NCBI RefSeq assembly: GCF_058153355.1
Contig: NZ_CM177019.1
DNA: 64,000 nucleotides
Direction: 5' to 3' (one strand)
Positions 1,097 to 60,796 of this stretch are shown here, in pieces. The position numbers and the translations under genes are program-made. Under the pieces are notes generated by a model. The model made no database searches, was not told the DNA's origin, and saw only the letters and a program-made list of their open reading frames with translations. Every line of letters starts with the position of its first letter. The first letter of the stretch is position 1.

Positions 1097-2638
<1,542 letters not shown>

Positions 2639-2762
2639 AAAAGTTTGATGCTCAAAGAATTAAACTTCGTAATGAATTACGTGTTCACTCTTGAGACTTG
2701 GTATTCATTTTTCGTCTTGCGACGTTAAGAATCCGTATCTTCGAGTGCCCACACAGATTGTC

Positions 2763-2782
2763 TGATAAATTGTTAAAGAGCA
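2763..2782 (-). promoter_or_regulatory. rrn leader boxA antitermination element
   Basis: Reverse complement reads TGCTCTTTAACAATTTATCA, matching the boxA consensus TGCTCTTTAACAA, in the 16S leader. Confidence 0.8.
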
Positions 2783-2822
2783 GTTGCGACGCGGCTTTCA
2801 GCTCACTGTCGCGAGGTGGCGT

Positions 2823-2850
2823 ATATTACGCTTTCCTCTTTCAGAGTCAA
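2823..2850 (-). promoter_or_regulatory. rrnH P2 promoter (-35 TTGACT, 16-bp spacer, -10 TAATAT)
   Basis: Reverse complement of 2823-2850: TTGACTctgaaagaggaaagcgTAATAT, upstream of 16S. Confidence 0.75.
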
Positions 2851-2933
2851 CCCTGAATTTCAGGATTTTTTCTCTTCAACCGAACCGGCTGTTTGTGTGA
2901 AGTGATTCACATCCGCCGTGTCGATGGAGGCGC

Positions 2934-2985
2934 ATTATAGGGAGTCGTTTCAGGAAGACAAGCGGAAAAATGCATTTTTATTTCA
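2934..2985 (-). promoter_or_regulatory. rrnH P1 promoter with AT-rich UP element (-35 TTGTCT, 16-bp spacer, -10 TATAAT)
   Basis: Reverse complement: taaaaatgcatttttccgcTTGTCTtcctgaaacgactcccTATAATgcgcc, closely resembling rrn P1 promoters. Confidence 0.75.
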
Positions 2986-3004
2986 ACCGCTCATCTTTTA
3001 ATCA

Positions 3005-3577
3005 TTACGCCGGTTTTTGCTGCTTTTTTATCGCTTGCGGCAGGTCTGCCAGGCTATTTAACACCCAATCCGCCGCGTTTTCTGCTTCAGGCGTAATAGG
3101 TTTTCCCGTACGCACCAGCACTTTTGTTCCCACGTTCGCCGCAGCCGCTGCCTGCATATCTTCTAATTTATCGCCCACCATATAAGAAGCGGCCATATCA
3201 ATATGCAAATAATCGCGTGCCGACAAAAGCATCCCCGGATGTGGTTTGCGGCAGTCGCAGACCTGGCGAAACTCTTCAACACTACCCTGCGGATGATGCG
3301 GGCAATAATAGATGCCATCCAGATCGACATCGCGGTCCGCCAGCGACCAGTCCATCCACTCGGTCAGCGTTTCAAACTGTGCTTCAGTAAATTTACCGCG
3401 AGCAATGCCAGACTGGTTGGTTACTACCACCAGCGCAAAGCCCATTTTTTTTAGCTCGCGCATGGCGTCAATAACACCGTCGATAAATTCAAAGTTGTCG
3501 ATCTCATGGACATAGCCGTGATCGACATTAATGGTGCCATCACGGTCAAGAAAAATTGCGGGTACGCTCTTCGCCAC
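3005..3577 (-). CDS. gmhB: D-glycero-beta-D-manno-heptose-1,7-bisphosphate 7-phosphatase
   Basis: 190-aa ORF starting [38 protein letters not shown]-family DxDGT motif; recognised as GmhB (YaeD). Confidence 0.93.
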
Positions 3578-3666
3578 CTTTTATAGCTCCTTAATAAGGC
3601 ATGTGACGCTAGTATCGCATGTTTCGACCTGCAAGAAAGTGCTCTTCGCATAAACCTGATTGATTT

Positions 3667-3690
3667 AGACGTCTGGATGCCTTAACATCC
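3667..3690 (+). promoter_or_regulatory. MetJ operator (three tandem 8-bp met boxes) in metNIQ promoter
   Basis: AGACGTCT GGATGCCT TAACATCC, tandem matches to met-box consensus AGACGTCT, about 75-100 bp upstream of metN start. Confidence 0.75.
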
Positions 3691-3764
3691 ATTTCATTGA
3701 CGGCTTTGACCGTTTCAGGCATTCGAAATGCCACGACTAACTTAATGACGATAATAAATAATCA

Positions 3765-4796
3765 ATGATAAAACTTTCGAATATCACCAAAGTGTTCCAC
3801 CAGGGCACCCGCACCATCCAGGCGTTGAACAACGTCAGCCTGCATGTGCCAGCTGGACAAATTTATGGCGTTATCGGTGCCTCAGGCGCGGGTAAAAGTA
3901 CGCTTATCCGTTGTGTAAACCTGCTGGAGCGCCCAACCGAGGGTAGCGTGCTGGTCGATGGTCAGGAACTGACCACGCTGTCAGAATCCGAGTTGACCAA
4001 AGCTCGCCGCCAGATTGGTATGATTTTCCAGCATTTTAACCTGCTCTCTTCGCGCACTGTTTTTGGCAACGTGGCACTGCCGCTGGAGCTGGACAACACG
4101 CCGAAAGACGAGATTAAACGTCGCGTGACAGAATTACTGTCATTGGTTGGTCTTGGCGATAAGCATGATAGTTACCCGTCTAACCTTTCCGGTGGGCAGA
4201 AACAACGTGTGGCGATTGCCCGTGCGTTAGCCAGCAATCCCAAAGTATTGCTGTGTGATGAGGCCACCAGCGCACTGGACCCGGCAACAACACGTTCTAT
4301 TCTCGAACTGCTGAAAGACATCAATCGTCGTCTGGGTTTGACGATTCTGTTGATCACCCACGAAATGGACGTTGTGAAGCGCATTTGTGATTGCGTGGCG
4401 GTGATCAGTAATGGCGAGTTGATCGAGCAGGACACGGTAAGTGAAGTGTTCTCGCATCCGAAAACGCCGCTGGCGCAGAAGTTTATTCAGTCGACCCTGC
4501 ATCTGGATATCCCGGAAGACTATCAGGAACGTCTGCAAGCGGAACCATTCGCTGACTGCGTGCCGATGCTGCGCCTGGAGTTTACCGGTCAATCGGTCGA
4601 TGCCCCGCTGCTTTCTGAAACCGCGCGTCGTTTCAACGTCAATAACAACATTATTAGCGCGCAGATGGATTACGCCGGTGGCGTTAAGTTCGGCATTATG
4701 CTGACTGAAATGCACGGCACACAACAAGATACGCAAGCCGCCATTGCCTGGCTGCAGGAACACCATGTAAAAGTAGAGGTACTGGGTTATGTCTGA
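3765..4796 (+). CDS. metN: methionine ABC transporter ATP-binding protein
   Basis: 343-aa ORF with Walker [13 protein letters not shown] signature LSGGQKQR and C-terminal regulatory domain; first gene of metNIQ. Confidence 0.95.
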
Positions 4797-5442
4797 GCCG
4801 ATGATGTGGCTGCTGGTTCGTGGCGTATGGGAAACGCTGGCAATGACCTTCGTATCCGGTTTTTTTGGTTTTGTAATTGGCCTGCCGGTTGGCGTCCTGC
4901 TTTATGTCACGCGTCCGGGGCAAATTATTGCTAACGCGAAGCTGTATCGTACCGTTTCTGCGATTGTGAACATTTTCCGATCCATCCCGTTCATTATCTT
5001 GCTGGTATGGATGATTCCGTTTACTCGCGTTATTGTCGGTACATCGATTGGTTTGCAGGCAGCGATTGTTCCGCTGACCGTTGGTGCAGCACCGTTTATT
5101 GCCCGTATGGTCGAGAACGCTCTGCTGGAGATCCCAACCGGGTTAATTGAAGCTTCCCGCGCAATGGGTGCTACGCCGATGCAGATCGTGCGCAAAGTGC
5201 TCTTACCGGAGGCGTTGCCAGGTCTGGTGAATGCAGCAACTATCACCCTGATTACTCTGGTCGGTTATTCCGCAATGGGTGGCGCAGTCGGTGCCGGTGG
5301 TTTAGGTCAGATTGGCTATCAGTATGGCTACATCGGCTACAACGCGACGGTGATGAATACGGTACTGGTATTGCTGGTCATTCTGGTTTATTTAATTCAG
5401 TTCGCAGGCGACCGCATCGTCCGGGCTGTCACTCGCAAGTAA
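4789..5442 (+). CDS. metI: methionine ABC transporter permease
   Basis: 217-aa hydrophobic ORF overlapping metN stop by 8 bp; recognised as MetI. Confidence 0.95.
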
Positions 5443-9352: not shown

Positions 9353-9360
9353 TGCCAGAA

Positions 9361-9389
9361 AGGGTCCTGAATTTCAGGACCCTTTTTTA
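9361..9389 (+). terminator. Rho-independent terminator after proS
   Basis: AGGGTCCTGA-aat-TTCAGGACCC followed by TTTTTT. Confidence 0.85.
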
Positions 9390-10235: not shown

Positions 10236-10340
10236 CCAGCCTCGTCCACAAAATACCGGATGAGGCGTGAGCGCCTTACCCGACCTACAAAATCGTGCTA
10301 ATACAAAATGTTGCATTATTGGCTGTAGGCCTGATAAGCG
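10236..10340. repeat. REP/BIME-type palindromic elements
   Basis: CCGGATGAGGCGTGAGCGCCTTACCCGACCTAC and GCCTGATAAGCGCAGCGCATCAGGC match the GCCGGATG.../GCCTGATGCG... REP consensus family; between convergent yaeF and nlpE. Confidence 0.8.
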
Positions 10341-43304: not shown

Positions 43305-43332
43305 AACCCCTTCCCGTTTTCAGGAAGGGGTT
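43305..43332 (-). terminator. putative terminator after degP
   Basis: AACCCCTTCC-loop-GGAAGGGGTT hairpin immediately downstream of degP stop. Confidence 0.6.
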
Positions 43333-43340
43333 GAGGAAGA

Positions 43341-44765
43341 TTACTGCATTAACAGATAGATGGTGCTGTCGCCGCGCTGAATATTCAGTGCCAGCACAGA
43401 CGGTTTGCTGTCGAGAACTTTACGCAGTTCAGCGATGTTTTTCACTGCCTGCTGGTTCGCACCAATAATCACATCACCTTTCTTCAGGCCGATCTGCGCA
43501 GCCGGAGTGCCCGTTTTCACGTTGTTCACCACCACGCCCTGATCTTTGCCTTTGTTGCTCATCTCAGCGCCTTCAATGCCGTTGAAGATGGTGCTGGAAT
43601 CAACCTGATTCTGGCTGCTCTGCTGCAGTTCCAGGTTCACGTTAACCTGCTTCCCGTCGCGCAGTAAGCCCAGGGTCAGTTTGCTGCCTACCGGCATAGT
43701 GCCCACCTGAGCACGCAGTGCGGCAAAGCTGCTGATTGGCTTACCGTTCAGTGAGGTGATCACATCACCCGCTTTAATGCCCGCTTTCGCGGCGGAAGAG
43801 TTCGGCAGAACCTGGCTTACGAAAGCACCGCGCTGGGCGTCAACTTTCATCGCTTTCGCCAGATCGGAGTTCAGCTCAGTCCCCATAATACCCAGCTCAC
43901 CGCGTTTCACCTGGCCGTATTCCACCATCTGCGAGGTCAGGTTTTTCACCATGTTGCTCGGGATAGCAAAACCGATACCGATGTTTCCGCCGTCCGGTGC
44001 GAGGATCGCGGTGTTGATACCAATCAGTTCGCCGTTCAGGTTAACCAGCGCGCCACCAGAGTTACCCCGGTTGATCGCTGCATCGGTCTGGATGAAGTTT
44101 TCGTAGTTTTCAGCGTTCAGGCCGCTACGTCCCAGCGCAGAGACAATCCCGGAAGTTACTGTCTCGCCCAGGCCGAACGGGTTACCAATTGCTACGGTGT
44201 AATCACCCACGCGCAGTGCATCAGAATCCGCCATCTTAATTGCGGTCAGGTTTTTCGGATTCTGGATCTGGATCAGCGCGATATCAGAGCGCGGATCTTT
44301 GCCAACCATCTTCGCGTCGAACTTACGACCATCGCTCAGCTGGACTTTAATCACCGTCGCGTTATCAACAACGTGGTTGTTGGTGACGACATAGCCTTTA
44401 TCGGCATCAATGATGACGCCGGAACCCAGCGCCATGAATTTTTGTTGCTGGCCGCCGCCATTACCGCCCTGGCCCCCCTGGCAGAACGGAGAGCTCTGGA
44501 ACGGAGAACCTTCCTGGCAGAACGGAGAATCATCACCGAAGAACTGCTGGAAATTACGCGGCATACGCGGCGTATTAACGGTTGTGCTACCTTCTACGTT
44601 AATGCTGACCACTGAAGGCATCACCTTTTCGAGCATTGGTGCAAGGCTTGGTATCTGCTGGGCTGTCGTTGCTGAAGAAGTCTCAGCCGCCGTTGCAGAG
44701 AGCGGAGATAACGCCAAACCTAAACTCAGAGCCAGTGCACTCAGTGCTAATGTGGTTTTTTTCAT
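43341..44765 (-). CDS. degP: periplasmic serine endoprotease/chaperone DegP (HtrA)
   Basis: 474-aa ORF with signal peptide, trypsin-like protease domain (GNSGGAL) and two PDZ domains; recognised as DegP. Confidence 0.96.
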   Translation of the reverse strand: MKKTTLALSALALSLGLALSPLSATAAETSSATTAQQIPSLAPMLEKVMPSVVSINVEGSTTVNTPRMPRNFQQFFGDDSPFCQEGSPFQSSPFCQGGQGGNGGGQQQKFMALGSGVIIDADKGYVVTNNHVVDNATVIKVQLSDGRKFDAKMVGKDPRSDIALIQIQNPKNLTAIKMADSDALRVGDYTVAIGNPFGLGETVTSGIVSALGRSGLNAENYENFIQTDAAINRGNSGGALVNLNGELIGINTAILAPDGGNIGIGFAIPSNMVKNLTSQMVEYGQVKRGELGIMGTELNSDLAKAMKVDAQRGAFVSQVLPNSSAAKAGIKAGDVITSLNGKPISSFAALRAQVGTMPVGSKLTLGLLRDGKQVNVNLELQQSSQNQVDSSTIFNGIEGAEMSNKGKDQGVVVNNVKTGTPAAQIGLKKGDVIIGANQQAVKNIAELRKVLDSKPSVLALNIQRGDSTIYLLMQ

Positions 44766-44810
44766 GTATTTCAGTCTCGATTAACAGATAACGCAAAATT
44801 GCTGTGTTCT

Positions 44811-44838
44811 TCAGATTCGTTTTATAGCGCGAAGTTCC
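44811..44838 (-). promoter_or_regulatory. sigma-E-type promoter of degP (-35 GGAACTT, -10 TCTGA)
   Basis: Reverse complement reads cGGAACTTcgcgctataaaacgaaTCTGAag, matching the sigma-E consensus GGAACTT-N16-TCTGA, about 50-75 bp upstream of degP start. Confidence 0.7.
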
Positions 44839-44894
44839 GAACTAAAGTTTCTGCAAAAAGTAAAAATTTATTGTCCGTCTTTACAAAAGCCTGG

Positions 44895-46412
44895 TTATTG
44901 TTCTACGGCCATCAGACGTCGGTATTCATCCCACGCATAGAGGTCGGTCATACCGCTGATATAATCCTGTAGCAGGCGGCAGCGGTAATAATATTCCCAT
45001 AGCGGAAACTCAGGAGAATCTGACGGTAATTTACTGACAGCCTCGACATAGGCCAGCCGATGGCGCGTCGAGAGTTTGTGGAATAAGCGCGATTCAATAG
45101 GGAAACGTTTCACCCGTTCTTTTTCTACCAATTCAGTAAAGTCTGATAACGACAGGCTTAATAAAGGGCGATAAATCTCTAATAATCCGCTAATGACCCG
45201 ATAGCCCTGCAATTCAAGCTGCTCGACATCTGGATGGCTAAACACATGTTTTACAGCGACATTTTTATATAGCTTTAGAAGATCGCTGCATTCGCTGGCA
45301 TCTTCCAATAATGCATGATTAAACGTTCCGGCGAAAATCGCAGGCAGATTATCAATAAATCGTTGTGCCGCGTAGGGTACCAGTTTATTTAGGGTGTTTA
45401 CCCGTAAATACATAAAAAACTGATCTTCCGTACTGCGGCTTAAACTATTTGAGCGTGATTTTTCCCAGGCATTTTCAACCACCAGCGAAAAGAGCGAACC
45501 TTTCTCATGCTGGCCCCACGCTTCGTGCAAATGATGATAAAGCTGCTCAACGCTGAATATTCTTTTCTCTACCGCATCTTCAAGATCTGCCACACAATAG
45601 GAGATGTCGTCGGCAGCTTCCATAATCCACGTTAATGGAAAACGACTGTAAAGCGCCAAATTAAGTTCTTTACGCAACCGGGCAATATAGGCTTCTTCAG
45701 AAAGATAATAACCCGGCTTTTTCATTAAATAGTGATGTGTCTCAGGCGTTTCACCACGCCACCACGCCGGACGAGTATATTTTAAAATACCGCCAACCTG
45801 TGCCCAGGTGAGATTCATCCGCATCAATGTATGCACCAGACGAATGCCTTGTGCATTCCCCTCAAAATGACATAAGTCCTGACGTATTTTGCGCCGCAGC
45901 TCGTTAAGCGGTTCTTCCCCTTCCCGTAAACGTAATGCCGCCACGCTGCAGCGATCGTCAGTCAGAGGCTGGCTTTCGGCATCAGCCGGAAACAAACGCT
46001 GGCGAAACCAGTCATTTATCGCCGCTTCACCAAAATGACCAAACGGCGGATTGCCGATATCGTGCATCAGGCATGACATCTCAACAATACTTTCAAAGGG
46101 GCCGGTCAGTTCATCCAGACCATAATCTTCCAGTAATTTAAGCTCTTTCAGACGGCTTAAAATTTCTTTGGCGATGTAGCGCCCCACCTGCTGGACTTCC
46201 ATTGAATGGGTTAGACGCGTGCGCACGGCGGCATTTCGCTCCAGCGGAAAAACCTGGGTCTTTTGTTGCAGACGACGAATTGCCGGAGAGTTGATAATAC
46301 GCCCACGATCGCTCTCAAAGATTCGCAGGATCTCATGTTCGGTTTTAACGCCCTGTGGTGAACGGTAACGACGATGCCAGTTTATTTTTTTTCGGAAATC
46401 AATCTGTGCCAT
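44895..46412 (-). CDS. dgt: deoxyguanosinetriphosphate triphosphohydrolase
   Basis: 505-aa ORF with HD-domain motifs; recognised as Dgt. Confidence 0.95.
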
Positions 46413-46495
46413 GTCCTCTCCCGCGTGAGAAATACGCTTCCCCGTAAGCGCATGGTAAACTATGCCTTCAAATCGGGCTTATCGCGAGTAAATCT

Positions 46496-47194
46496 ATGAA
46501 AATCGGCATCATTGGTGCAATGGAAGAAGAAGTTACGCTGCTGCGTGACAAAATCGAAAACCGCCAAACTATCAGTCTGGGCGGTTGCGAAATCTATACC
46601 GGCCAACTGAATGGAACCGAAGTTGCGCTTCTGAAATCGGGCATCGGTAAAGTTGCTGCGGCACTGGGTGCAACTCTGCTGTTGGAACACTGCAAGCCAG
46701 ATGTGATTATTAACACCGGTTCTGCCGGTGGCCTGGCGCCAACGCTGAAAGTGGGCGATATCGTTGTCTCGGACGAAGCACGTTATCACGACGCGGATGT
46801 CACGGCATTTGGTTACGAATACGGTCAGTTACCTGGCTGCCCGGCTGGCTTCAAAGCTGACGATAAACTGATCGCTGCCGCTGAGGCCTGCATTGCCGAA
46901 CTGAATCTTAACGCTGTACGTGGCCTGATTGTCAGCGGCGACGCTTTCATCAACGGTTCTGTTGGCCTGGCGAAAATCCGCCACAACTTCCCGCAGGCCA
47001 TTGCTGTAGAGATGGAAGCGACGGCAATCGCTCATGTCTGCCACAATTTCAACGTCCCGTTTGTTGTCGTACGCGCCATCTCCGACGTGGCCGATCAACA
47101 GTCTCATCTTAGCTTCGATGAGTTCCTGGCTGTTGCTGCTAAACAGTCCAGCCTGATGGTTGAGTCACTGGTGCAGAAACTGGCACATGGCTAA
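46496..47194 (+). CDS. mtn: 5'-methylthioadenosine/S-adenosylhomocysteine nucleosidase
   Basis: 232-aa ORF starting [13 protein letters not shown]; recognised as Mtn (Pfs). Confidence 0.96.
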
Positions 47195-47987
47195 GTCACT
47201 GTTCAGGGCGCTGGTCGCCCTGTCTTTTCTCGCCCCTCTGTGGCTCAACGCCGCACCGCGCGTCATCACGCTTTCACCCGCCAACACTGAACTTGCTTTT
47301 GCCGCCGGGATCACGCCGGTTGGGGTCAGCAGTTATTCCGACTACCCTCCACAAGCGCAAAAGATTGAGCAGGTTTCAACCTGGCAGGGGATGAATCTCG
47401 AACGCATTGTGGCCCTTAAACCCGATCTGGTGATTGCCTGGCGTGGAGGTAATGCCGAGCGGCAGGTTGACCAGTTAGCTTCGCTGGGAATAAAAGTGAT
47501 GTGGGTCGATGCGACAAGCATTGAACAAATTGCCAATGCGTTACGTCAACTGGCCCCCTGGAGCCCACAACCGGACAAGGCTGAACAAGCCGCGCAATCC
47601 CTGCTGGACCAGTACGCACAATTGAAAGCGCAATATGCTGATAAACCTAAAAAACGTGTTTTTCTGCAATTCGGCATTAATCCGCCATTTACCAGTGGAA
47701 AAGAATCGATTCAAAACCAGGTACTCGAAGTTTGTGGCGGAGAAAACATCTTTAAAGATAGCCGGGTTCCCTGGCCGCAAGTTAGCCGCGAACAGGTGTT
47801 AGCACGCGCGCCACAGGCAATTGTCATTACCGGCGGACCGGACCAAATTCCTAAAATCAAACAATACTGGGGCGAACAGCTCAAAATTCCCGTTATTCCT
47901 CTCACGAGTGACTGGTTTGAACGTGCAAGCCCACGTATTATCCTCGCTGCACAACAGCTCTGTAATGCGCTTTCACAGGTAGATTAG
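47187..47987 (+). CDS. btuF: vitamin B12 ABC transporter periplasmic binding protein
   Basis: ORF track starts 47160; recognised BtuF starts [22 protein letters not shown] (266 aa), overlapping mtn stop by 8 bp. Confidence 0.93.
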
Positions 47988-48024
47988 CGCCTGACCTTTT
48001 CAGGTGCTCAGTGGGGATTGAACA

Positions 48025-48648
48025 ATGCTCGTCTATTGGCTGGATATAGTCGGCACAGCGGTATTTGCCATCTCCGGCGTTTTGTTAGCCGGAAAATTGC
48101 GTATGGACCCTTTTGGTGTTCTGGTACTGGGCGTGGTTACCGCAGTAGGCGGCGGAACAATTCGCGACATGGCGCTGGATCACGGCCCGGTATTTTGGGT
48201 GAAAGATCCCACCGATCTGGTCGTTGCAATGGTAACCAGCATGCTGACGATCGTGCTGGTGCGCCAGCCAAGACGCTTACCGAAATGGATGTTGCCGGTG
48301 CTGGATGCCGTTGGTCTGGCGGTGTTTGTCGGCATTGGCGTGAATAAAGCCTTTAATGCGGAAGCCGGTCCGTTGATCGCGGTTTGTATGGGCGTCATTA
48401 CTGGCGTTGGCGGCGGGATCATTCGTGATGTACTGGCCCGCGAAATCCCCATGATTTTACGCACAGAAATCTACGCAACGGCCTGTATTATCGGCGGTAT
48501 TGTCCACGCTACGGCTTATTACACATTTTCCGTGCCCCTGGAAACAGCCAGTATGATGGGCATGGTCGTGACGCTATTGATTCGACTGGCGGCTATTCGT
48601 TGGCATCTTAAGCTACCGACGTTTGCGCTGGATGAGAATGGGCGTTGA
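48025..48648 (+). CDS. yadS: UPF0126 inner-membrane protein YadS
   Basis: 207-aa hydrophobic ORF with duplicated glycine-rich membrane motif; recognised as YadS. Confidence 0.88.
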   Translation: MLVYWLDIVGTAVFAISGVLLAGKLRMDPFGVLVLGVVTAVGGGTIRDMALDHGPVFWVKDPTDLVVAMVTSMLTIVLVRQPRRLPKWMLPVLDAVGLAVFVGIGVNKAFNAEAGPLIAVCMGVITGVGGGIIRDVLAREIPMILRTEIYATACIIGGIVHATAYYTFSVPLETASMMGMVVTLLIRLAAIRWHLKLPTFALDENGR

Positions 48649-48659
48649 AGAGAGGAGAT

Positions 48660-48683
48660 GTGCCGGATAGCTTATCCGGCACA
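48660..48683. repeat. palindromic REP-like element / bidirectional terminator between yadS and erpA
   Basis: GTGCCGGATA-gct-TATCCGGCAC, perfect 10-bp inverted repeat. Confidence 0.6.
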
Positions 48684-48694
48684 CGAATAAGAGA

Positions 48695-49039
48695 TTAGAT
48701 GCTGAAGGAAGAACCGCAACCGCAGGTGCTTTTCGCGTTCGGGTTGGTCACGATGAAACGAGAACCTTCCAGACCTTCGGTATAGTCAACGGAACCGCCG
48801 ACCAGATATTGCAGGCTCATCGGGTCAACCACTAGGCCTACGCCCTGTTTTTCGATGGTCATATCGCCTTCGTTCACCTGATCATCAAAGGTGAAACCAT
48901 ACTGGAAGCCGCTACAACCGCCACCGGTGATATACACGCGTAATTTCAGATTCGGGTTATCTTCGTCAGCGATCAGGCTTTTAACTTTGTTGGCTGCTGC
49001 GTCGGTAAACTCCAGCGGCAGTGCTACGTCATCACTCAT
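48695..49039 (-). CDS. erpA: iron-sulfur cluster insertion protein ErpA
   Basis: ORF track 48695-49072; recognised ErpA starts [19 protein letters not shown] (114 aa); C-terminal CGCGSSF. Confidence 0.93.
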
Positions 49040-49120
49040 ATTTTGCTCCAAACGACATCGGCAATTGGGCAAATTCTAACCCAATAATAATCGCCATTAT
49101 CTAATACCCTGGTATTTCGT

Positions 49121-50560
<1,440 letters not shown>

Positions 50561-50766
50561 TCATACAAATAAGATGACGGCATTTTACTCGCACGTTCCA
50601 TGAAAATCCTTTGCAAAGCGTAATGTTTCAAATGCACAAAACTTTTATACTCTAAGAAATCAGGATTGTACCAGTACAAGCAACCTGACGTTTGACGAGT
50701 ATTTAACTTGTTATGAATAACATAGAATAGCAGCCATTCACTTTTTCTACGAATCAGGAACCCTCC

Positions 50767-52047
50767 ATGAGTAAGTCTGAAAATCTATACAGCGCAGCGC
50801 GCGAGCTGATCCCTGGCGGTGTGAACTCCCCTGTTCGCGCCTTTACTGGCGTGGGCGGCACTCCACTGTTTATCGAAAAAGCGGACGGTGCTTATCTGTA
50901 CGATGTTGATGGCAAAGCCTATATCGATTATGTCGGTTCCTGGGGGCCGATGGTGCTGGGCCATAACCATCCGGCGATCCGCAATGCCGTGATTGAAGCC
51001 GCCGAGCGTGGTTTAAGCTTTGGGGCACCGACCGAAATGGAAGTGAAAATGGCGCAACTGGTGACCGAACTGGTCCCGACCATGGATATGGTGCGCATGG
51101 TGAACTCCGGCACTGAAGCGACAATGAGTGCCATCCGCCTGGCCCGCGGTTTTACCGGTCGCGACAAAATCATTAAATTTGAAGGTTGTTACCACGGTCA
51201 CGCTGACTGCCTGCTGGTAAAAGCCGGTTCTGGCGCACTCACGTTAGGCCAGCCAAACTCGCCGGGCGTTCCGGCAGATTTTGCCAAACATACCTTAACC
51301 TGTACTTATAACGATCTGGCTTCTGTACGCGCCGCGTTTGAGCAATACCCGCAAGAGATTGCCTGTATTATCGTCGAGCCGGTGGCAGGCAATATGAACT
51401 GTGTTCCGCCGCTGCCAGAGTTCCTGCCGGGTCTGCGTGCGCTGTGTGACGAATTTGGCGCGTTGCTGATCATCGATGAAGTGATGACCGGTTTCCGCGT
51501 GGCGCTGGCTGGCGCGCAGGATTATTACGACGTGGTGCCAGACCTCACCTGCCTGGGCAAAATCATCGGCGGTGGAATGCCGGTAGGCGCATTCGGTGGT
51601 CGTCGTGATGTGATGGATGCGCTGGCCCCAACCGGTCCGGTCTACCAGGCGGGTACGCTTTCCGGTAACCCGATTGCGATGGCAGCCGGTTTCGCCTGTC
51701 TGAATGAAGTCGCGCAGCCGGGCGTTCACGAGACGCTGGATGAGCTGACAACACGTCTGGCAGAAGGTCTGCTGGAAGCGGCAGAAGAAGCGGGAATTCC
51801 ATTGGTCGTTAACCACGTTGGCGGCATGTTCGGTATTTTCTTTACCGACGCCGAGTCCGTGACGTGCTATCAGGATGTGATGGCCTGCGACGTCGAGCGC
51901 TTTAAGCGTTTCTTCCATATGATGCTGGACGAAGGTGTTTACCTGGCACCGTCAGCGTTTGAAGCGGGCTTTATGTCTGTGGCGCACAGCATGGAAGATA
52001 TCAATAACACCATCGATGCTGCACGTCGGGTGTTTGCGAAGTTGTAA
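50767..52047 (+). CDS. hemL: glutamate-1-semialdehyde 2,1-aminomutase
   Basis: 426-aa ORF; recognised as HemL. Confidence 0.96.
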
Positions 52048-52053
52048 TGATTT

Positions 52054-52082
52054 TGCCTCGCCCACCGGGCGAGGCATTTTAT
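52054..52082. terminator. bidirectional terminator between convergent hemL and fhuB
   Basis: TGCCTCGCCC-acc-GGGCGAGGCA (10-bp stem) followed by TTTT; the whole intergenic region is only 34 bp. Confidence 0.8.
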
Positions 52083-54064
52083 TAACGGCTCTGCTTTCTC
52101 AACAAATAGATAAAATACGGCGCGCCGATAAAGGTCGACAGCAGCCCCGCTGGGATCTGGAATGGAAACAGCACCATCCGCCCACACCAGTCAGCGAACA
52201 CCAGCAACAATCCCCCCACCAGCGCCGAAATCACAATATGCGGCATCGTCCGTCGAAAGCCCATCATCCGCGCAATATGCGGTGCCATTAAACCAACAAA
52301 ACTCAACGGTCCAATGGTCATTGTCGCGGTCGCCGTCAGGCAAGCCGCTAACAGCAGCAGCGCAATTCGCGTCGGCGTCAGCGCCATTCCCACGGCTCGT
52401 GCGGTATCACCTCCCAGCGGTAAAATGGTCAGCCAGCGGCGGCACAGCGGGGTAATCGCCAGCAAAATCACCATCACAATTCCGGTGCGCCAGACCTGCG
52501 CATCGGTCGCGTTGTAGGTCGAACCGGAAATCCAGGTCAGAACTTGCGCCATTCGCGGGTCACCACTTGCCTGCAACATCATCAAAAGCATGGTGAACGC
52601 GGTACTTAAGGCCATCCCCGCCAGTAACATGCGGTGTGGGGAAAATCCACCGCGTCCGGCAGCGATCATAATGATCAACAGCGTCACCGCCGCGCCGAAA
52701 CTGCCCGCGGGTAACAGCCAGCCAAAGGCATTACCCGGCACCAAAAACAGCATCAACACCACACCAAACGCCGCGCCGGAACTAATCCCCAGCACTTCCG
52801 GGCTTGCCATCGGGTTGCCGGTCAGCCGCTGAATAATACAGCCCGCCACCGCCAGCATGACGCCCGCAAACAGCGCCGCCATAATTCGCGGCCAGCGCCA
52901 AGGCATCAAATCCTCGAGCAACGCCCCGCTCGCCCACGTCCAGCCGTGCGCATCACGACCAAACGACAGCGCCACCACCACAGCCATCAACAGCAGCACG
53001 CCGCCCGCGAGGGCAAACGCCAGCACATGTTGGCGTTCAGCAGCGACACGATCGTTCACCTTCATATCCGGCGCGCTAATGCAGCGTAAACGCGGCAGCA
53101 GCCACAGCAGCAGCGGCGCACCGATGAGCGCAGTGACCGAACCGGTAGAAACTTCCATCCACACGCGAGTCAGCCAGAGGATGATTTGATCGGAAAGCCA
53201 GAGGATCAGCGCACCAATCAGTGACGCCAGCAGCAGTCTTGGCAGCAGACGCCGCGCCCCCAGCATTTTTGCCAGCAGCGGCGCGAACAACCCGATAAAG
53301 CCGATAATCCCCACCGCGTTCACCAGCAGCGCACTGATGACTATCGCCAGCGACAGCGCCGCCAGACGCGCGAGCGACAAGGCCAGCCCGAGATTGCGCG
53401 CCACGCCATCATCAAGCCCCATCAGGGTTAACGGACGAAGTAGCAGTAACGTCAGCATCACGCCGCCCAGCAACTGCGGCCATAAACGCTCAACGCCACC
53501 CCAGTCGGTTTGCGTCAGCGTTCCGGTGCTCCACAGGAACATGCTTTGTAGCTGGTCGTGATGGAAGATAACCAGTAACTGATTGATTGCCCCGCAATAA
53601 AGGCTCACCACAAGCCCCGCGAGGATCAGCGTTACCGGAGAAAGCCGTTTCCCCCACGCGACGCCAAAGACAATTAAGCCAACCACACAAGCCCCTGCCA
53701 ATGCAGCAAACTGGCTCGCCATCGCACCAGGGATCGCCCAGAGTGTAGTGACAGTAATTCCCAGTTGCGCACCAGTTGCGACGCCCAACGTGGTCGGCTC
53801 CGCCAGCGGGTTACGCAGCACTTGCTGAAATAGCACGCCCACCAGCCCCAGACCCGCGCCCACCAGCAGCGAAATCGCCAGACGCGGCAGCAAGCTGTAG
53901 TGAAAAATCATCTGCTCGATGACGTCAATATCCGGCGACCAGGCAGCCTGCGCCCACTGGCTACGCGGCAGCGCCTGAGAGAAGTTCATCCAGGTGAGCA
54001 CCGCTGCGGCAACCACCAACAGCGCCAGCAATAATGCCGGGAAAAGCGCAATACGTTTACTCAC
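52082..54064 (-). CDS. fhuB: ferric hydroxamate ABC transporter permease
   Basis: 660-aa ORF, duplicated permease; recognised as FhuB. Confidence 0.95.
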   Translation of the reverse strand: MSKRIALFPALLLALLVVAAAVLTWMNFSQALPRSQWAQAAWSPDIDVIEQMIFHYSLLPRLAISLLVGAGLGLVGVLFQQVLRNPLAEPTTLGVATGAQLGITVTTLWAIPGAMASQFAALAGACVVGLIVFGVAWGKRLSPVTLILAGLVVSLYCGAINQLLVIFHHDQLQSMFLWSTGTLTQTDWGGVERLWPQLLGGVMLTLLLLRPLTLMGLDDGVARNLGLALSLARLAALSLAIVISALLVNAVGIIGFIGLFAPLLAKMLGARRLLPRLLLASLIGALILWLSDQIILWLTRVWMEVSTGSVTALIGAPLLLWLLPRLRCISAPDMKVNDRVAAERQHVLAFALAGGVLLLMAVVVALSFGRDAHGWTWASGALLEDLMPWRWPRIMAALFAGVMLAVAGCIIQRLTGNPMASPEVLGISSGAAFGVVLMLFLVPGNAFGWLLPAGSFGAAVTLLIIMIAAGRGGFSPHRMLLAGMALSTAFTMLLMMLQASGDPRMAQVLTWISGSTYNATDAQVWRTGIVMVILLAITPLCRRWLTILPLGGDTARAVGMALTPTRIALLLLAACLTATATMTIGPLSFVGLMAPHIARMMGFRRTMPHIVISALVGGLLLVFADWCGRMVLFPFQIPAGLLSTFIGAPYFIYLLRKQSR

Positions 54065-54951
54065 GCTTTACCTCCGATGGCGTTATCCAGAATACGCACA
54101 AAGTGCATTGCCGAGAGCGTCGCACCATAAAACCAGACTGCAGGTACGCGCTGAAAGCGTCCGGCACGGACAAACGGCATGGCCTGCCACAGCGGGGTTG
54201 CCATTAGTGCGTCCATGTCTTTGCTGTTGTCGTGATCAAAACAGAGCACATCAACGTCCTTATACGCTGCCAGACGATCGATACTGACGGCAGTACTGCC
54301 CCAGAAGTTGGTTTCCCCTTGCCAGGCATTTGGGATGCCGTACCCATCAAGAATTTCCTGGAACAAGCTGTTTGGACCGAAGACCAGCATATGGCGCGGA
54401 TCGATAAGTGTCGTCAGTAATAACGGACGCGCACCACGCTTCACAAAGCGGGGTTTCATGCTGCGGATAAAGTCTTCATAGTGCGCTAAATGCGTTTCTG
54501 CTGCGCTTTGCAGGTTAAGTAAATCTGCCATTTCCGTCAGCGATTTACGCGCCATCGCCAGCGGCTGTTTGCCGTCGCTGAAGTTAAATCCGCGCCCAGG
54601 CGCAATGCGTGCCAGCATTTCTGGTGAAGGGCCATACCCTGCCGACCAGACCATAAACGACGGCTTCATTTCGGTCAGCAGTTCAAGGTTAGGTTCTGTC
54701 CGCAAACCGACGTCAATCACCGATTCAGGTAATGGCGGTTCGCTGACCCACAGGCGATAGTTGATGGTATCCGCCACGCCGTAAGGTACGATGCCGAGCG
54801 CCAGCAGTAATTCCACCGGCAACCACTCCAGCGCCACAATACGATTGGGATCAATAGCCGCCGCGCGGGCGGTATTCATCTGCCATAACAACGGAGAAAG
54901 CGCCATCGCCGTTAACAGTCGACGGCGCGAAATAAGAGGTAAGCCGCTCAT
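54061..54951 (-). CDS. fhuD: ferric hydroxamate periplasmic binding protein
   Basis: ORF track 54061-54954; recognised FhuD starts MSGLPLISRRRLLTAMAL (296 aa, Tat-like signal). Confidence 0.93.
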   Translation of the reverse strand: MSGLPLISRRRLLTAMALSPLLWQMNTARAAAIDPNRIVALEWLPVELLLALGIVPYGVADTINYRLWVSEPPLPESVIDVGLRTEPNLELLTEMKPSFMVWSAGYGPSPEMLARIAPGRGFNFSDGKQPLAMARKSLTEMADLLNLQSAAETHLAHYEDFIRSMKPRFVKRGARPLLLTTLIDPRHMLVFGPNSLFQEILDGYGIPNAWQGETNFWGSTAVSIDRLAAYKDVDVLCFDHDNSKDMDALMATPLWQAMPFVRAGRFQRVPAVWFYGATLSAMHFVRILDNAIGGKA

Positions 54952-55748
54952 CAATAAACAAAACTCACAGGTGCAGCACCCGCCGGATGCGGCAAAATAC
55001 CCATCGGGATGCCATAAATCATTTCGAGGGTTTCGCCGCGCATAATTTCCGCAGGCGTTCCCTGAGCAATCATTTCACCGCCGCGCAGGGCGACCAGATA
55101 ATCACAGTAACGCGCTGCCATATTGATATCGTGCAGTACGGCAATGACCGTCAGACCACGTTCCTGACTTAAACGGTGCACCAGCGCCAGCACATCAACC
55201 TGGTGGGCGATATCCAGCGCCGAGGTCGGTTCGTCCAGCAACAGACAACGGCTATCCTGCGCCACCAGCATGGCGATCCACGCCCGCTGACGTTCACCGC
55301 CTGAGAGGCTATCGACCAGCCGATGCGCCAGCGGTTTTAAGCCAACCAGCGAGATAGCCTCTTCGACCTTTTCGCGATCTGCCGCGCCAAAGCGCCCCAG
55401 CGCGCCATGCCACGGGTAACGACCAATCGCCACCAGTTCACGCACCGTCATCCCTTCTGCCGGAGGAAGCTGCTGCGGCAAATAAGCCACTTTGCGAGCA
55501 AACGCTTTGCTGCTCCAGCTTTCCAGTGGCTGGGCATCAAGAAGAATCTCCCCTTCCGACGGCGGTTGGTGACGGCCAAGCATTTTGAGCAGAGTGGATT
55601 TACCAGAACCGTTGTGACCAATCAGACCGGTCACTTTCCCGGCAGGAAAGGTTAACGACAGCGGATGCAAAAGCGTGCGCCCGGGCACACGAAAGGAGAT
55701 ATTACGCAGTGCAAAAGTGGTATCGGAATGATTCGTGTATTCCTGCAT
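54951..55748 (-). CDS. fhuC: ferric hydroxamate ABC transporter ATP-binding protein
   Basis: ORF track 54951-55790; recognised FhuC starts MQEYTNHSDTTFALRNISFRV (265 aa); Walker A GHNGSGKST. Confidence 0.93.
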   Translation of the reverse strand: MQEYTNHSDTTFALRNISFRVPGRTLLHPLSLTFPAGKVTGLIGHNGSGKSTLLKMLGRHQPPSEGEILLDAQPLESWSSKAFARKVAYLPQQLPPAEGMTVRELVAIGRYPWHGALGRFGAADREKVEEAISLVGLKPLAHRLVDSLSGGERQRAWIAMLVAQDSRCLLLDEPTSALDIAHQVDVLALVHRLSQERGLTVIAVLHDINMAARYCDYLVALRGGEMIAQGTPAEIMRGETLEMIYGIPMGILPHPAGAAPVSFVY

Positions 55749-55798
55749 AACAGCCAACTTGTGAAACGGGCACGGAAATCCGTGCCCCAAAAGAGAAA

Positions 55799-58042
55799 TT
55801 AGAAACGGAAGGTTGCGGTTGCAACGACCTGACGTTCTGCGCCCCAGAAGCAGCCATAGGTATTAAAGCAGCTGGCGACGTATTCACGATCGAACAGGTT
55901 GTTGACATGCAGCGCCACGTTGGAGCCAGCCATGCCGACCCGCGCCAGATCATAACGCACTAACGCATCCACGACCGTATAACTTCCCACTTTAAAGGAG
56001 TTAGCCGGATCACCATAGCTGGAGCCAGTATAACGACCACCAGTACCCAGCGTCAGGCCAGAAAGCGGACCATCAAAGAAGGTGTAGTCAGCCCACAGCG
56101 AAGCCATATGTTTTGGCACCTGCGCAGGCGTATTGCCTTTGTAGGTAGTATCGGTGGTGTATTCCGCATCGGTGTAAGTATAAGAACCTACTACGTTAAC
56201 ACTCGCCGACAGCGCCGCTTTCGCTTCGATTTCTACGCCACGAGCGCGGATTTCACCACCTTCAACCGAGAAGAAGGAACCCTCAGGGTCCGCCATCAGG
56301 TTGTTGGTTTTAGTGAGATTATACACAGCACCAGTAACCACAATTGGGCGATCTTCCGGTACATATTTCACGCCGACCTCATACTGCTTACCTTTAGACG
56401 GCGCAAAAATATTACCATCCTTCCCAACTTGTGAAGAAGGTTCAAACGATTCGCTATAGCTGAAGTAAGGTGTTACACCATTATCAAACAGGTAGTTAAC
56501 ACCACCACGCCAGGTAAACTGTTTGTCATCACGTTTATCGGTCGTCCCTTCAACGCGGTTATGAGACTCTTGATCCGCCCAGTCATAACGACCGCCCAGG
56601 GTGACCAGCACTTTATCCCACTGCGCCTGATCCTGAACATAAACACCCGTTTGTTTCTGCTTATTCAAAATGCGGTAAGGACCGGAGTTTGCCGGATCTT
56701 TCGCATTGAAGTCGAAATCGGTATTCACCGGATTGTACAGATCGAGCAGCGGTACGGAGTCGTCGTAACCAAACCAGGCGTTGATGTCATTACGCATACG
56801 CATAAAGTCGACGCCGGTCAGCAGAGTGTGGTCGATATCGCCAGTGGCAAACTTGCTCTGCAACTGGGTATCAACGGAGAAGTTTTGCAGCTTCTCATCA
56901 TCAACGACGTATTTACGTGCCAGGTAGTGACCTTTATCGGCTGGCGCTAAAGCGGCACACTGTTTGCTGTAAGCATTCGCCGGATCGGAGCAGACGCCGT
57001 AACCATAAACGCTGTTTTGCGAGGTTTTGTTTTCAGCAAAGCGCAGGTTCTGACGCACAGTAAAGGTGTCGTTAAATTCGTGATCGAAGCTGTAGCCCAC
57101 CATCTTCTCATTACGAGAATAGGTGTTGTTCTTCGCCCCTTCGTTAAAATCTGTCGGCAGACGCTTACCGTTCGGCAGCGGCTCAACGGTTCCCTCTTTC
57201 GGCAGCCAGCCGTAATAACCGGTTTCCGGCTCGTTCTGGAAGTAAGAAAGGAAGGTGAAATTGGTTTTATCATCCGGACGCCAGGTAAACGCTGGCGCAA
57301 TGGCATAACGCTGCTCTTCCGCGCCCTTTTGCTGGGCATTGGCAGAGCGCGCAAGACCGGTCAGGCGATAAGAGTAAACACCGTCATCATCCAGCGCATC
57401 GCTAAAGTCAAAACCGGTCTGGAACAGGCTGTCAGTACCGGCTTTAAACTGAACTTCTTTCAGCGGTTCAGTAGTCGGACGCTTGCTGACCATATTCAAC
57501 AGGCCGCCAGGACTGCTTTTACCGTAAAGCACTGAAACCGGGCCACGCATAATTTCAGCGCGTTCCAGCATATACGGGTCAATGACCGCATCGTTATAGA
57601 AGTTGCCCTGCAACTTCAGGCCATTCAGATAGTTATTCTGGCTTTGGCCTTCTGCCGCAAAGCCGCGAATGATCAGGTGGTCATAGGTGTTGGATGCGCC
57701 ACGCGTACCAACAGAGACACCCGGCGTGTAGCTAAGCGCCTCTTTTACTGACTTCGGCTGATGCAGCGCCATCTCTTCGGCGGTCACAACAGAAATAGAC
57801 TGTGGCACTTTTTGAATCGGTGTATCGGTTTTGGTGCCGGTAGCGGACTGTCGCGCCGCAATAGTTGCAGCTGGCCCCCATGCGCTTTCTTGCGGCGCTG
57901 GTGCAGCGGTAACGGTGATAGTGTCTTCTTTCGGTTCAACCGCTGCCTGTGCATAAACAGACATGCCGCTAACCGCTGTGGCTACTACAACTGCAATTTT
58001 ACGCAGTGAGTGTTTTGGCTGAGCAGTTTTGGAACGCGCCAT
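55799..58042 (-). CDS. fhuA: TonB-dependent ferrichrome outer-membrane receptor
   Basis: 747-aa ORF with signal peptide, TonB box and C-terminal ...ATATFRF; recognised as FhuA. Confidence 0.96.
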   Translation of the reverse strand: MARSKTAQPKHSLRKIAVVVATAVSGMSVYAQAAVEPKEDTITVTAAPAPQESAWGPAATIAARQSATGTKTDTPIQKVPQSISVVTAEEMALHQPKSVKEALSYTPGVSVGTRGASNTYDHLIIRGFAAEGQSQNNYLNGLKLQGNFYNDAVIDPYMLERAEIMRGPVSVLYGKSSPGGLLNMVSKRPTTEPLKEVQFKAGTDSLFQTGFDFSDALDDDGVYSYRLTGLARSANAQQKGAEEQRYAIAPAFTWRPDDKTNFTFLSYFQNEPETGYYGWLPKEGTVEPLPNGKRLPTDFNEGAKNNTYSRNEKMVGYSFDHEFNDTFTVRQNLRFAENKTSQNSVYGYGVCSDPANAYSKQCAALAPADKGHYLARKYVVDDEKLQNFSVDTQLQSKFATGDIDHTLLTGVDFMRMRNDINAWFGYDDSVPLLDLYNPVNTDFDFNAKDPANSGPYRILNKQKQTGVYVQDQAQWDKVLVTLGGRYDWADQESHNRVEGTTDKRDDKQFTWRGGVNYLFDNGVTPYFSYSESFEPSSQVGKDGNIFAPSKGKQYEVGVKYVPEDRPIVVTGAVYNLTKTNNLMADPEGSFFSVEGGEIRARGVEIEAKAALSASVNVVGSYTYTDAEYTTDTTYKGNTPAQVPKHMASLWADYTFFDGPLSGLTLGTGGRYTGSSYGDPANSFKVGSYTVVDALVRYDLARVGMAGSNVALHVNNLFDREYVASCFNTYGCFWGAERQVVATATFRF

Positions 58043-58080
58043 TGGTATATCTCTGATGTAAAGTGAATGATAACGTAAAC

Positions 58081-58114
58081 GAGAATGATTATTATAAAGA
58101 TAAGATAATATTCG
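58081..58114 (-). promoter_or_regulatory. Fur box in fhuA promoter
   Basis: GAGAATGATTATTATAAAGATAAGATAATATTCG, GATAAT/ATTATC-type hexamer repeats, 40-70 bp upstream of fhuA start. Confidence 0.7.
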
Positions 58115-58261
58115 AAACGCTGGCGGGTTCGCAAGCGGTACGCAATCTGAGCATTCCTGAGGGGTTAATAAACAATCAGATGAAAAGAAAGGGTTAATAC
58201 TTTGGGTAGGATGTTATTTTACCGGATGGCGACTCGCCATCCGGTATGTCACGCTTAGACG

Positions 58262-60796
58262 TTAATTACTACCAAACATATCCTTGATCCAACCTGCTAC
58301 GCCGTCACTGTCTTTCTGCTCTTGCTGAGCAGGTTGCTGTTGCGGTTGTTGCTGCGGCTGAGAAGACTGATCAAACGGATTGCCTGACGGTTGCTGCTGA
58401 ATCTCACTCTGCTGGCACAGCGATTGCGGATCGCTGGTCCAGACCGGCAAGACACGCATGCCACCGCTGCAAACAAAGTTGCCGTCGTAGTCCACGCCCA
58501 TATCTGCAATATCTTCTGGTGGAACAAGATTCAGCGGTGTTGGTGTCTGGTTAGCCAGATAACGCTGATAAATCGACATTGCCCCACTGGCACCATACAG
58601 TTTGGTCGGCTGGTTGTTATCACGGCCTACCCAGGTGATGGTCACCGTGCTGCCGTCAATGCCCGCAAACCAGGTATCCACGTTGTTGTTGGTAGTCCCG
58701 GTTTTGCCCGCCAGATGCAGGTTCGGGTATTTCGCCCCAAGCTGACGACCCGTACCGCGTTGTACCACCTGCTGCATGGTCCATAGTGTCAGATACGCCG
58801 CCTGCGCCGGAACCGCGCGTTCCGCCTGCGGGAAGCTCTGATACAACACCTTGCCATCTTCCGCGATTACCGAACGCAGCGCAGAAAGCGGTGCTCGGTT
58901 ACCACCGCTGGCGATGGTCTGGAACGCCTGCGCCACTTCAATTGGCGTTAAGTTCAACGCCCCCAGCAGCATTGCCGGAACCGGATGCAGCTGATCTTTC
59001 GGTACGCCCAGTTTAATCCAGGTATCCGTAACCGCAGGCAGCCCCAACGCCATCCCCAGATTTACCGTCGGCACGTTCATCGAACGAGTCAACGCATCCA
59101 CCAGCATCACTCTGCCACTTTCGCTATAACGACGATCATCGTTCTGCGGTGACCAGACCTGGCCATTCGGCTGACGCAGCGCGATTGGCGCATCGGCAAT
59201 CCACGTGTTCAGGCGATAGATTTTCGGCTGGCTTAAGGCCGTCAGATAAGTCGCTGGTTTTGCAAGGGAACCAATCGAACGACGCGCCTGCATCGCACGG
59301 TTGTAACCTGCAAACTGCGGCTCAGAACCACCAACCATCGCACGAACTTCACCACTAAAGCGGTCGACGACCACAATTGCCGTTTCCAGATCGCTTAACT
59401 TACGCTGTTTCTTCAGTGCCGGAATGCCTTCCACGGCGGCTTTTTCCGCCGCGTCCTGAGCCACCGAGTCAAAGGTAGTGAAGATCTTCACGCCGGAGAG
59501 ATCTTTTACCTTATCGCCTAATTTCGCCTGCAGCTCCTGACGCACCAGTTGCATAAAGGCTGGCTGTGGAGAGATTACCCCACCACGCGGCTGAACCCCC
59601 AGCGGACGTGCACTCAACATGTCATAGAGCTCTTGATCAATAATCTGCTGTTGTTGCAGCAGACGCAGCACCAGGTTACGTCGCTCCAGCGCCAGTTTCG
59701 GGTTACGCCACGGGTTGTAGATCGACGCCCCTTTCACCATACCAACCAACAGCGCCTGCTGGTCGAGACTCAGCTCTTCTACCGGGCGACCAAAGTAGTA
59801 CAGGCTCGCCAGCGGGAAACCGCGGATTTCGTTGTCGCCGCTCTGACCGAGATACACCTCGTTCATATACAGCTCAAGAATGCGGTCTTTGCTGTAACGC
59901 GCATCCATGATCAGCGCCATGTAGGCTTCGTTCGCTTTACGCCAGTAAGAGCGCTCGCTGGAGAGGAACAGGTTCTTCACCAACTGCTGGGTCAGCGTAC
60001 TGGCCCCCTGTACCGTACGACCTGCCATCAGGTTCGCCAGCACGGCACGGCCAATGGAATAGAGACTGATCCCATCATGCTCGTAGAAATGACGGTCTTC
60101 AGTCGCCAACAACGTATCCACCAGCAAGTCAGGGAACCCACTGCGCGGCACAAACAGACGCTGCTCACCGTTTGGTGAAGAGATCATGGTGATCAGGCGC
60201 GGATCAAGACGGAAGAAACCGAACTGACGGTTGTTCTCCATATTGACGATGGTCGCCAGATGATCACCATCAAAAGTCAGACGCGCACGTACCTGCCCTT
60301 CTTTACTGTCCGGGAAATCAAACGGACGGCGGATCATTTCAATGCTGTTGGCCTGCACGGTAAATTCGCCAGGGCGCGTCATTTTCGACACCTGACGATA
60401 CTGGGTCGCCTCCAGCAGCTTCACCATCTCGTTTTTGCTGATGGTCATGTCTGGCTCAAGGTTGACCATTCGGCCATAAACAGCCGCAGGCAATTGCCAG
60501 ACTTTGCCATCAATACGGCTACGAATTTTTTGATCGAGATAAACACCGTAAATGGCGATCAGCACGGCAAAAACGATAGCCAGTTTTAGCAGCAGCCATA
60601 GCCAGCCGCGTTTGCCACGAGGCTTACGCCCTTTGCCTTTGCCCTTACCTTTGCGCGGCATCGGTTCTTCATCCTCATAGTCATCATAATCGTCGTAATC
60701 ATCGTCATCTTCGTAACGACGACGGCTTACCTTTTGTTTGACCGGACGCGTCGGTTTCCCTTTGCGTCCAATTGGCTCGCGGTCATTCCCGGCCAT
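58262..60796 (-). CDS. mrcB: penicillin-binding protein 1B (bifunctional glycosyltransferase/transpeptidase)
   Basis: ORF track 58262-60811; recognised PBP1b starts [18 protein letters not shown] (844 aa). Confidence 0.95.

Follow-up and report, generated by a model that had tools for sequence, protein, structure and literature searches.

The convergent junction between hemL and fhuB in the DNA analysed here, a stretch of 64,000 nucleotides from contig NZ_CM177019.1 of RefSeq assembly GCF_058153355.1 (hereafter the window), has a spacer of 34 bp whose sole structured element is a single G+C-rich hairpin. Most E. coli (Escherichia coli) genomes share this short spacer, which is probably also the older state of the junction; its hairpin most likely serves as a Rho-independent terminator and protecting stem-loop of the hemL transcript, and in K-12 a BIME has been swapped in for it. 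On this reading, the junction would combine an ordinary intrinsic-terminator hairpin with a well-known class of REP/BIME presence/absence polymorphism, both of an already known kind.

The features of the junction are collected in Table 1. The first-pass annotation had described a gap of 34 bp between the hemL stop (52047) and fhuB (52082), filled by a hairpin with a 10-bp stem; the coordinates agree exactly with the list of open reading frames, and the hairpin is present and perfect, with 10 pairs (eight of them G-C) and a 3-nt loop at 52054-52076. Its stem begins 6 nt past the hemL stop and 5 nt past the fhuB stop. Upstream of the junction, two very small genes are annotated in relatives (loci L086 and L092), and by position there they would fall at the following places in the window: yadX, of 15 codons, at ~50555-50602 between clcA and hemL, on the upstream side of clcA; and yadW, of 21 codons, at ~49033-49098, overlapping the start of erpA just downstream of clcA.

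Table 1. Features of the hemL-fhuB junction in the window
Feature	Position	Strand	Source or remark
hemL CDS (glutamate-1-semialdehyde 2,1-aminomutase, 426 aa)	50767..52047	+	ORF list; annotation of 96-98% identical E. coli matches
hemL stop TAA	52045-52047	+	TGA next, in frame
Convergent spacer, short allele, 34 bp, TGATTTTGCCTCGCCCACCGGGCGAGGCATTTTA	52048..52081	.	ORF list and sequence
Hairpin 5' arm TGCCTCGCCC	52054..52063	+	Sequence, fold, terminator scan, hairpin count
Hairpin loop ACC (AGC in some E. coli strains)	52064..52066	+	Sequence
Hairpin 3' arm GGGCGAGGCA	52067..52076	+	Sequence, fold, terminator scan; covariation at first and last pair
T-rich tail TTTTATTAA, hemL-sense	52077..52085	+	Overlaps fhuB stop codon 52082-52084
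fhuB CDS (ferric hydroxamate ABC transporter permease, 660 aa), stop TAA	52082..54064	-	ORF list; match annotation

The hairpin is not a chance feature. As RNA, the + strand folds at -27 kcal/mol (z = -6.0), and none of 200 shuffles folds as well; the same hairpin on the fhuB-sense strand reaches -24.2 kcal/mol. Perfect hairpins of at least 10 bp with short loops account for 10 nested matches in the window, spread over five separate sites, whereas dinucleotide shuffles (n = 30) give 0.5 matches on average. The stem is also conserved across genera with compensatory changes, as set out below. The four further sites of this kind lie at 9359-9385, 43305-43332, 48659-48683 and 58220-58246; at the first of these, the arms extend as AAA…TTT and further T residues come next, as one would expect if a terminator truly worked in both directions.

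A terminator scan called the spacer hairpin on the + strand only. The scan requires at least five T in eight positions of the tail, and the + strand tail, TTTTATTAAC, passes with only four consecutive T. The hemL-sense RNA accordingly reads as the hairpin followed by the U-tract UUUUAUUAA, that is, four U and then AUUAA. In this direction, the element resembles an intrinsic terminator in having a G+C-rich stem-loop (a stem of at least 5 bp, here 10 bp, and a loop of 3-8 nt, here 3 nt) with a U-rich tract directly 3' of the stem and just past the stop codon, this tract being weaker in other strains. It differs from one in the shortness of its U-tract, which is degenerate in most strains, in its distance of only 6 nt from the stop, and in the lack of any such tract on the fhuB-sense strand. 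There, the RNA continues from the hairpin into AAAAUCAUUAC (minus-strand sequence past the hairpin: AAAAUCAUU / AAAATCATT / AAAATCATTA), with no U-tract and no terminator call.

In the reading that we prefer, the hairpin and its U-rich tail would terminate the hemL transcript independently of Rho and protect its 3' end, and termination at this point would stop hemL transcripts before they could extend into fhuB in antisense. Transcripts of fhuACDB arriving from the other side would form an equally stable hairpin without a U-tract; therefore, a stop in that direction must rely on something else, which might be the hairpin as a pause site or exonuclease barrier, head-on collision of RNA polymerases, or Rho acting on untranslated antisense-hemL RNA. 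The sequences directly show the anatomy of the junction, the difference in tail between the strands, the conserved and covarying stem, the allele frequencies and the BIME nature of the K-12 spacer; termination at the spacer, its direction and its efficiency are what we infer from them.

Two features speak against the terminator reading, namely the short U-tract and the position of the hairpin 6 nt past the hemL stop, where ribosomes repress termination: a terminator a few bp past a gene showed near-complete repression by the trailing ribosome in vivo (PMC4824070). The tail also varies. The exact 51-mer that spans hairpin and tail (52050-52100) occurs in 397 of 3,683 short-allele genomes, and its carriers among the matches listed are O157:H7 or O157-like strains. 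Other short-allele strains that we sampled have an unchanged stem followed by the tail TTCAATTAA or TCCTATTAA (UUCAAUUAA or UCCUAUUAA). At the five loci compared over window positions 52077-52081, the tail is TTTTA in the window and the O157:H7 type, TCCTA in AR_0055, and TTCAA in three strains (ST95-32, 144 and Z1323PEC0010). Genomes of the window type end hemL with TAA, and those with the other tails end it with TGA. The stem, by comparison, is invariant in all six other short-allele E. coli examined (2017-02-2CC and five sampled across the identity range). Because the tail is weak in most short-allele strains, what selection maintains may be the stem and not termination of the canonical kind.

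A conserved stem beside an unconserved U-tail, fitting selection on the hairpin itself, is also what would be expected of a non-canonical terminator of convergent genes, in which the stem-loop would position head-on polymerase collisions and both transcripts would stop without U-tracts. Bidirectional terminators between convergent E. coli genes have been reported to be unlike intrinsic ones, with the stem-loop in the nascent RNA fixing the site of collision (bioRxiv 10.1101/2022.10.23.513370). The bidirectional terminators of convergent E. coli genes (Ju et al. 2019, as cited in that preprint) have a single stem-loop centred between convergent stops, as here; the window hairpin differs from the sequence-defined class in showing no A-tract/U-tract symmetry. 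Collision would require simultaneous transcription from both sides, whereas fhuACDB lies ~10-fold below hemL in one K-12 RNA-seq table (baseMean of 538 for fhuB vs 5,263 for hemL, in the supplement of the REP preprint, and measured with the BIME allele). As weak context, the difference would fit a greater need for a stop in the hemL direction than in the other. We regard collision as a rather unlikely account of the hairpin; it is compatible with hemL termination and not exclusive of it. Published K-12 data concern the BIME allele and not the short one. We found no 3'-end mapping for a short-allele strain in the literature and nothing relevant on hemL and fhuB in connection with REPs or antisense transcription, and in the supplement of the REP preprint the two genes appear in expression tables only, not as a REP or terminator case.

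A canonical bidirectional terminator, which would place a U-tract on either strand and end both the hemL and the fhuACDB transcripts, is a less promising idea still, and we consider it improbable. In such a terminator, an A-tract has to precede the hairpin, since only then does the other strand, too, specify a hairpin plus U-tract. The first-pass annotation had called the element bidirectional and described it as flanked by A and T runs. Indeed, the hairpin is a perfect palindrome except for its loop, is stable as RNA from both strands and is the only structured element between the two genes. On the + strand, however, T-runs stand on both sides, ATTTT 5' of the hairpin and TTTTATTAA 3' of it, and the upstream flank offers no A-tract; together with the + strand call, this contradicts the bidirectional label, in its canonical sense, at the sequence level and leaves an intrinsic-terminator shape in the hemL direction only. 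The contrasting arrangement exists in Enterobacter species, where the same junction has flanks of the type AAAACGGCA…TGCCGTTTT and a terminator is called on both strands; that shape is missing here.

In MG1655, fhuB ends at 173444 and hemL at 173602, and the spacer between them (173445-173601) is 157 bp long. The longer K-12 spacer supposed in the first-pass annotation is thus real, and the reference spacer is not of the same length as that of the window. In hemL-sense order, it consists of GTCGGATGCGGCGTGAACGCCTTATCCGACCTAC, a 15-bp linker, GTAGGCCCGATAAGACGCGCCAGCGTCGCATCGGGCA and a degenerate third copy. The check for REP consensus sequences that the annotation had proposed gave clear matches: the first REP agrees with the y consensus at 31 of 32 positions and ends in CTAC, and the second, inverted one agrees, as its reverse complement, with the z1 consensus at 34 of 36 positions and begins with GTAG. 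CTAC and GTAG stand at the feet of hairpins, and the spacer RNA folds into two imperfect hairpins of REP type. In each E. coli genome, the core of the spacer (query ~40-130) recurs at a median of nine places, with a maximum of 20, and among the matches listed these places are stretches without an annotated feature. Inverted pairs of y and z REPs with GTAG/CTAC and a linker, together with dispersed multi-copy occurrence, agree with the published definition of REPs and BIMEs (PMC3333891), and the MG1655 spacer is a BIME with three REPs: one of y type, an inverted one of z1 type and a degenerate one. E. coli strains differ in the BIMEs that they have at any one locus (PMC3333891). Convergent gene pairs flank ~60% of the REPs in E. 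coli, and a REP is found at ~30% of such junctions (bioRxiv 10.64898/2026.03.23.713779).

All that the short and K-12 spacers share is the T adjoining the hemL stop, extended to TC at the most in some short alleles, and the terminator hairpin is absent from K-12. MAFFT produced only a spurious alignment of short and long spacers because the two are unrelated. The two forms differ by replacement of the whole spacer, hairpin included, and not by gain of a repeat; in K-12 and ~31% of complete E. coli genomes, the 157-bp BIME has taken the place of the hairpin. The annotation had suspected an additional REP-type palindrome in K-12: the REPs are there, but the BIME takes the place of the hairpin instead of being added to it. 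Its broader suggestion of a strain-variable intergenic repeat is borne out by the allele counts given below.

The y, z1 and z2 REPs and the BIME elements are the subject of work by Bachellier and colleagues and by Ton-Hoang and colleagues (2012; PMC3333891). The window hairpin occupies the same niche as these elements, the K-12 allele at the very same locus being a BIME, and yet it is single-copy, perfectly paired and without GTAG/CTAC, and so stands as an alternative to a BIME and not as a member of the family. Where a REP has GTAG/CTAC at the foot of an imperfect palindrome of 30-40 nt, neither motif was found in the 34-bp spacer, and its palindrome is perfect and 23 nt long. Where REPs are dispersed in many copies, the hairpin occurs at one place per genome in 3,683 genomes, and a search of the window with up to three mismatches returned only the hairpin itself. 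An Rfam scan of 50000-54500 (E up to 1) gave no match. The hairpin might instead be a REP in decayed or minimal form, or a scar at the empty site from which a K-12-type BIME was excised. In favour of this, palindromic repeats plainly accumulate at the locus, which has REP-like or CCCTCTCCC-type ones in most of 77 species. We nevertheless reject the idea as scarcely credible: the hairpin is single-copy, has no GTAG/CTAC and resembles the K-12 spacer in no more than one or two bases next to the hemL stop; its stem is perfect, whereas the palindrome of a REP is imperfect and must contain a mismatch (PMC3333891); and homologous hairpins occur in Citrobacter and Intestinirhabdus, which have REPs unlike the E. 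coli ones.

The window genome has REPs, but not at the hemL-fhuB junction. A blastn-short search located a REP/BIME-like element at 10257-10338: over 32 bp (10257-10288), its identity to the y-type REP in the hemL-fhuB spacer of K-12 is 90.6%, and a second short match lies at 10324-10338. A search across the window with the y-REP consensus, allowing up to three mismatches, found no copy.

Allele frequencies were counted in 5,426 complete E. coli genomes at a query coverage of at least 80%. The short junction query matched 3,703 genomes (68%) and the query of the K-12 spacer with its flanks 1,701 (31%), in a collection that is not random and has too large a share of laboratory K-12 derivatives and outbreak clones; neither form fits the remaining genomes, about 22 in number. 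E. coli HS has the short allele, and the 34-bp length recurs in strain 2017-02-2CC, in the five sampled short-allele strains and in O157:H7 PV15-279. In strain FDN-24 (NZ_CP158147.1; positions 1486-4371 of the retrieved locus, L004), one of the genomes with neither form, the 3' ends of hemL and fhuB and the whole spacer are deleted and the two genes are fused, both being annotated as pseudogenes; the deletion may be genuine or may stem from faulty assembly.

The alleles do not simply track local relatedness: MFDS1022581, the closest relative of the window over 16 kb (97.9%), carries the long allele. The profile of mismatches between the window and MFDS1022581 (long) and O157:H7 (short) is a mosaic, with no clean recombination tract at the junction. 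For window positions 44000-60000, the best identity over 16 kb among the 5,426 genomes is that same 97.9%. Taken with the mosaic profile, this suggests that the window comes from a lineage poorly represented in the collection or that the region is recombinant.

A scan of species representatives based on FhuB returned 80 loci, 77 of them with both gene ends; E. fergusonii, E. marmotae and E. ruysiae were not among the loci returned. Three Citrobacter species have 36-bp spacers with the hairpin TCCATTCGCCTCGCC-TGTTA-AGGCGAGGCGTTTACA, and that of Intestinirhabdus alba is CGCCTCGCCC-GGC-GGGCGAGGCG. These hairpins have the core GCCTCGCC in common with the window and a T-run (TTTAC…) on the hemL-sense side. 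Over eight sequences, 98.8% of stem cells are paired, compared with 35-55% when the partner is slid by one to three columns, and two of the 10 pairs show compensatory changes on both sides, T-A to C-G at the base and C-G to T-A at the top. The short hairpin is thus homologous across genera and structurally constrained, and its homology with the hairpins of Citrobacter and Intestinirhabdus makes the short form probably the ancestral one and the K-12 form derived.

The other Escherichia complicate this. BIME forms with a near-identical left junction were found in all four Escherichia species representatives retrieved, namely that of E. coli (162-bp spacer), Escherichia sp. MOD1-EC7003 (157 bp), E. 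albertii (118 bp) and E. whittamii, which has a BIME array of 440 bp (4484-4923 of locus L007). Both alleles may therefore be old, or may have been moved between lineages by recombination. Spacer lengths in the 77 species run from 33 to 1,840 bp (median 95), and in most of these species the spacer contains genus-specific REP-like or CCCTCTCCC/GGGAGAGGG palindromic repeats, according to simple motif rules that are crude and give rough counts only. The hemL-fhuB site is a general landing place for palindromic repeats, in agreement with the reported frequency of REPs at convergent junctions (bioRxiv 10.64898/2026.03.23.713779). Longer junctions also occur: at three Atlantibacter loci, the junction measures ~1.84 kb and holds a gene-sized insert, and in Enterobacter quasihormaechei and Klebsiella oxytoca it measures 533-541 bp, the E. 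quasihormaechei insert appearing to lie inside a CCCTCTCCC-type repeat.

Beyond annotation, the finding matters little: it adds one more convergent junction with a REP/BIME in K-12 and a plain hairpin in most other E. coli. A more far-reaching idea is that the hairpin and the BIME are two old alleles kept in E. coli by the differing 3'-end behaviour of two iron-linked genes. It takes its cue from the hairpin being common to Citrobacter and the BIME to E. albertii and E. whittamii, and we think it very unlikely. If true, Fur-derepressed fhuACDB transcripts would, with the short allele, encounter no U-tract terminator and could run antisense into hemL and so tie haem synthesis to iron supply, and the BIME allele would insulate hemL and fhuB from each other. 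In any case, the junction offers a natural allele pair, 34 bp vs 157 bp between identical flanking genes, that could be used to compare a REP with a simple hairpin in terminating or stabilising convergent transcripts, and it is a reminder that K-12 represents a minority, and probably derived, state at hemL-fhuB.
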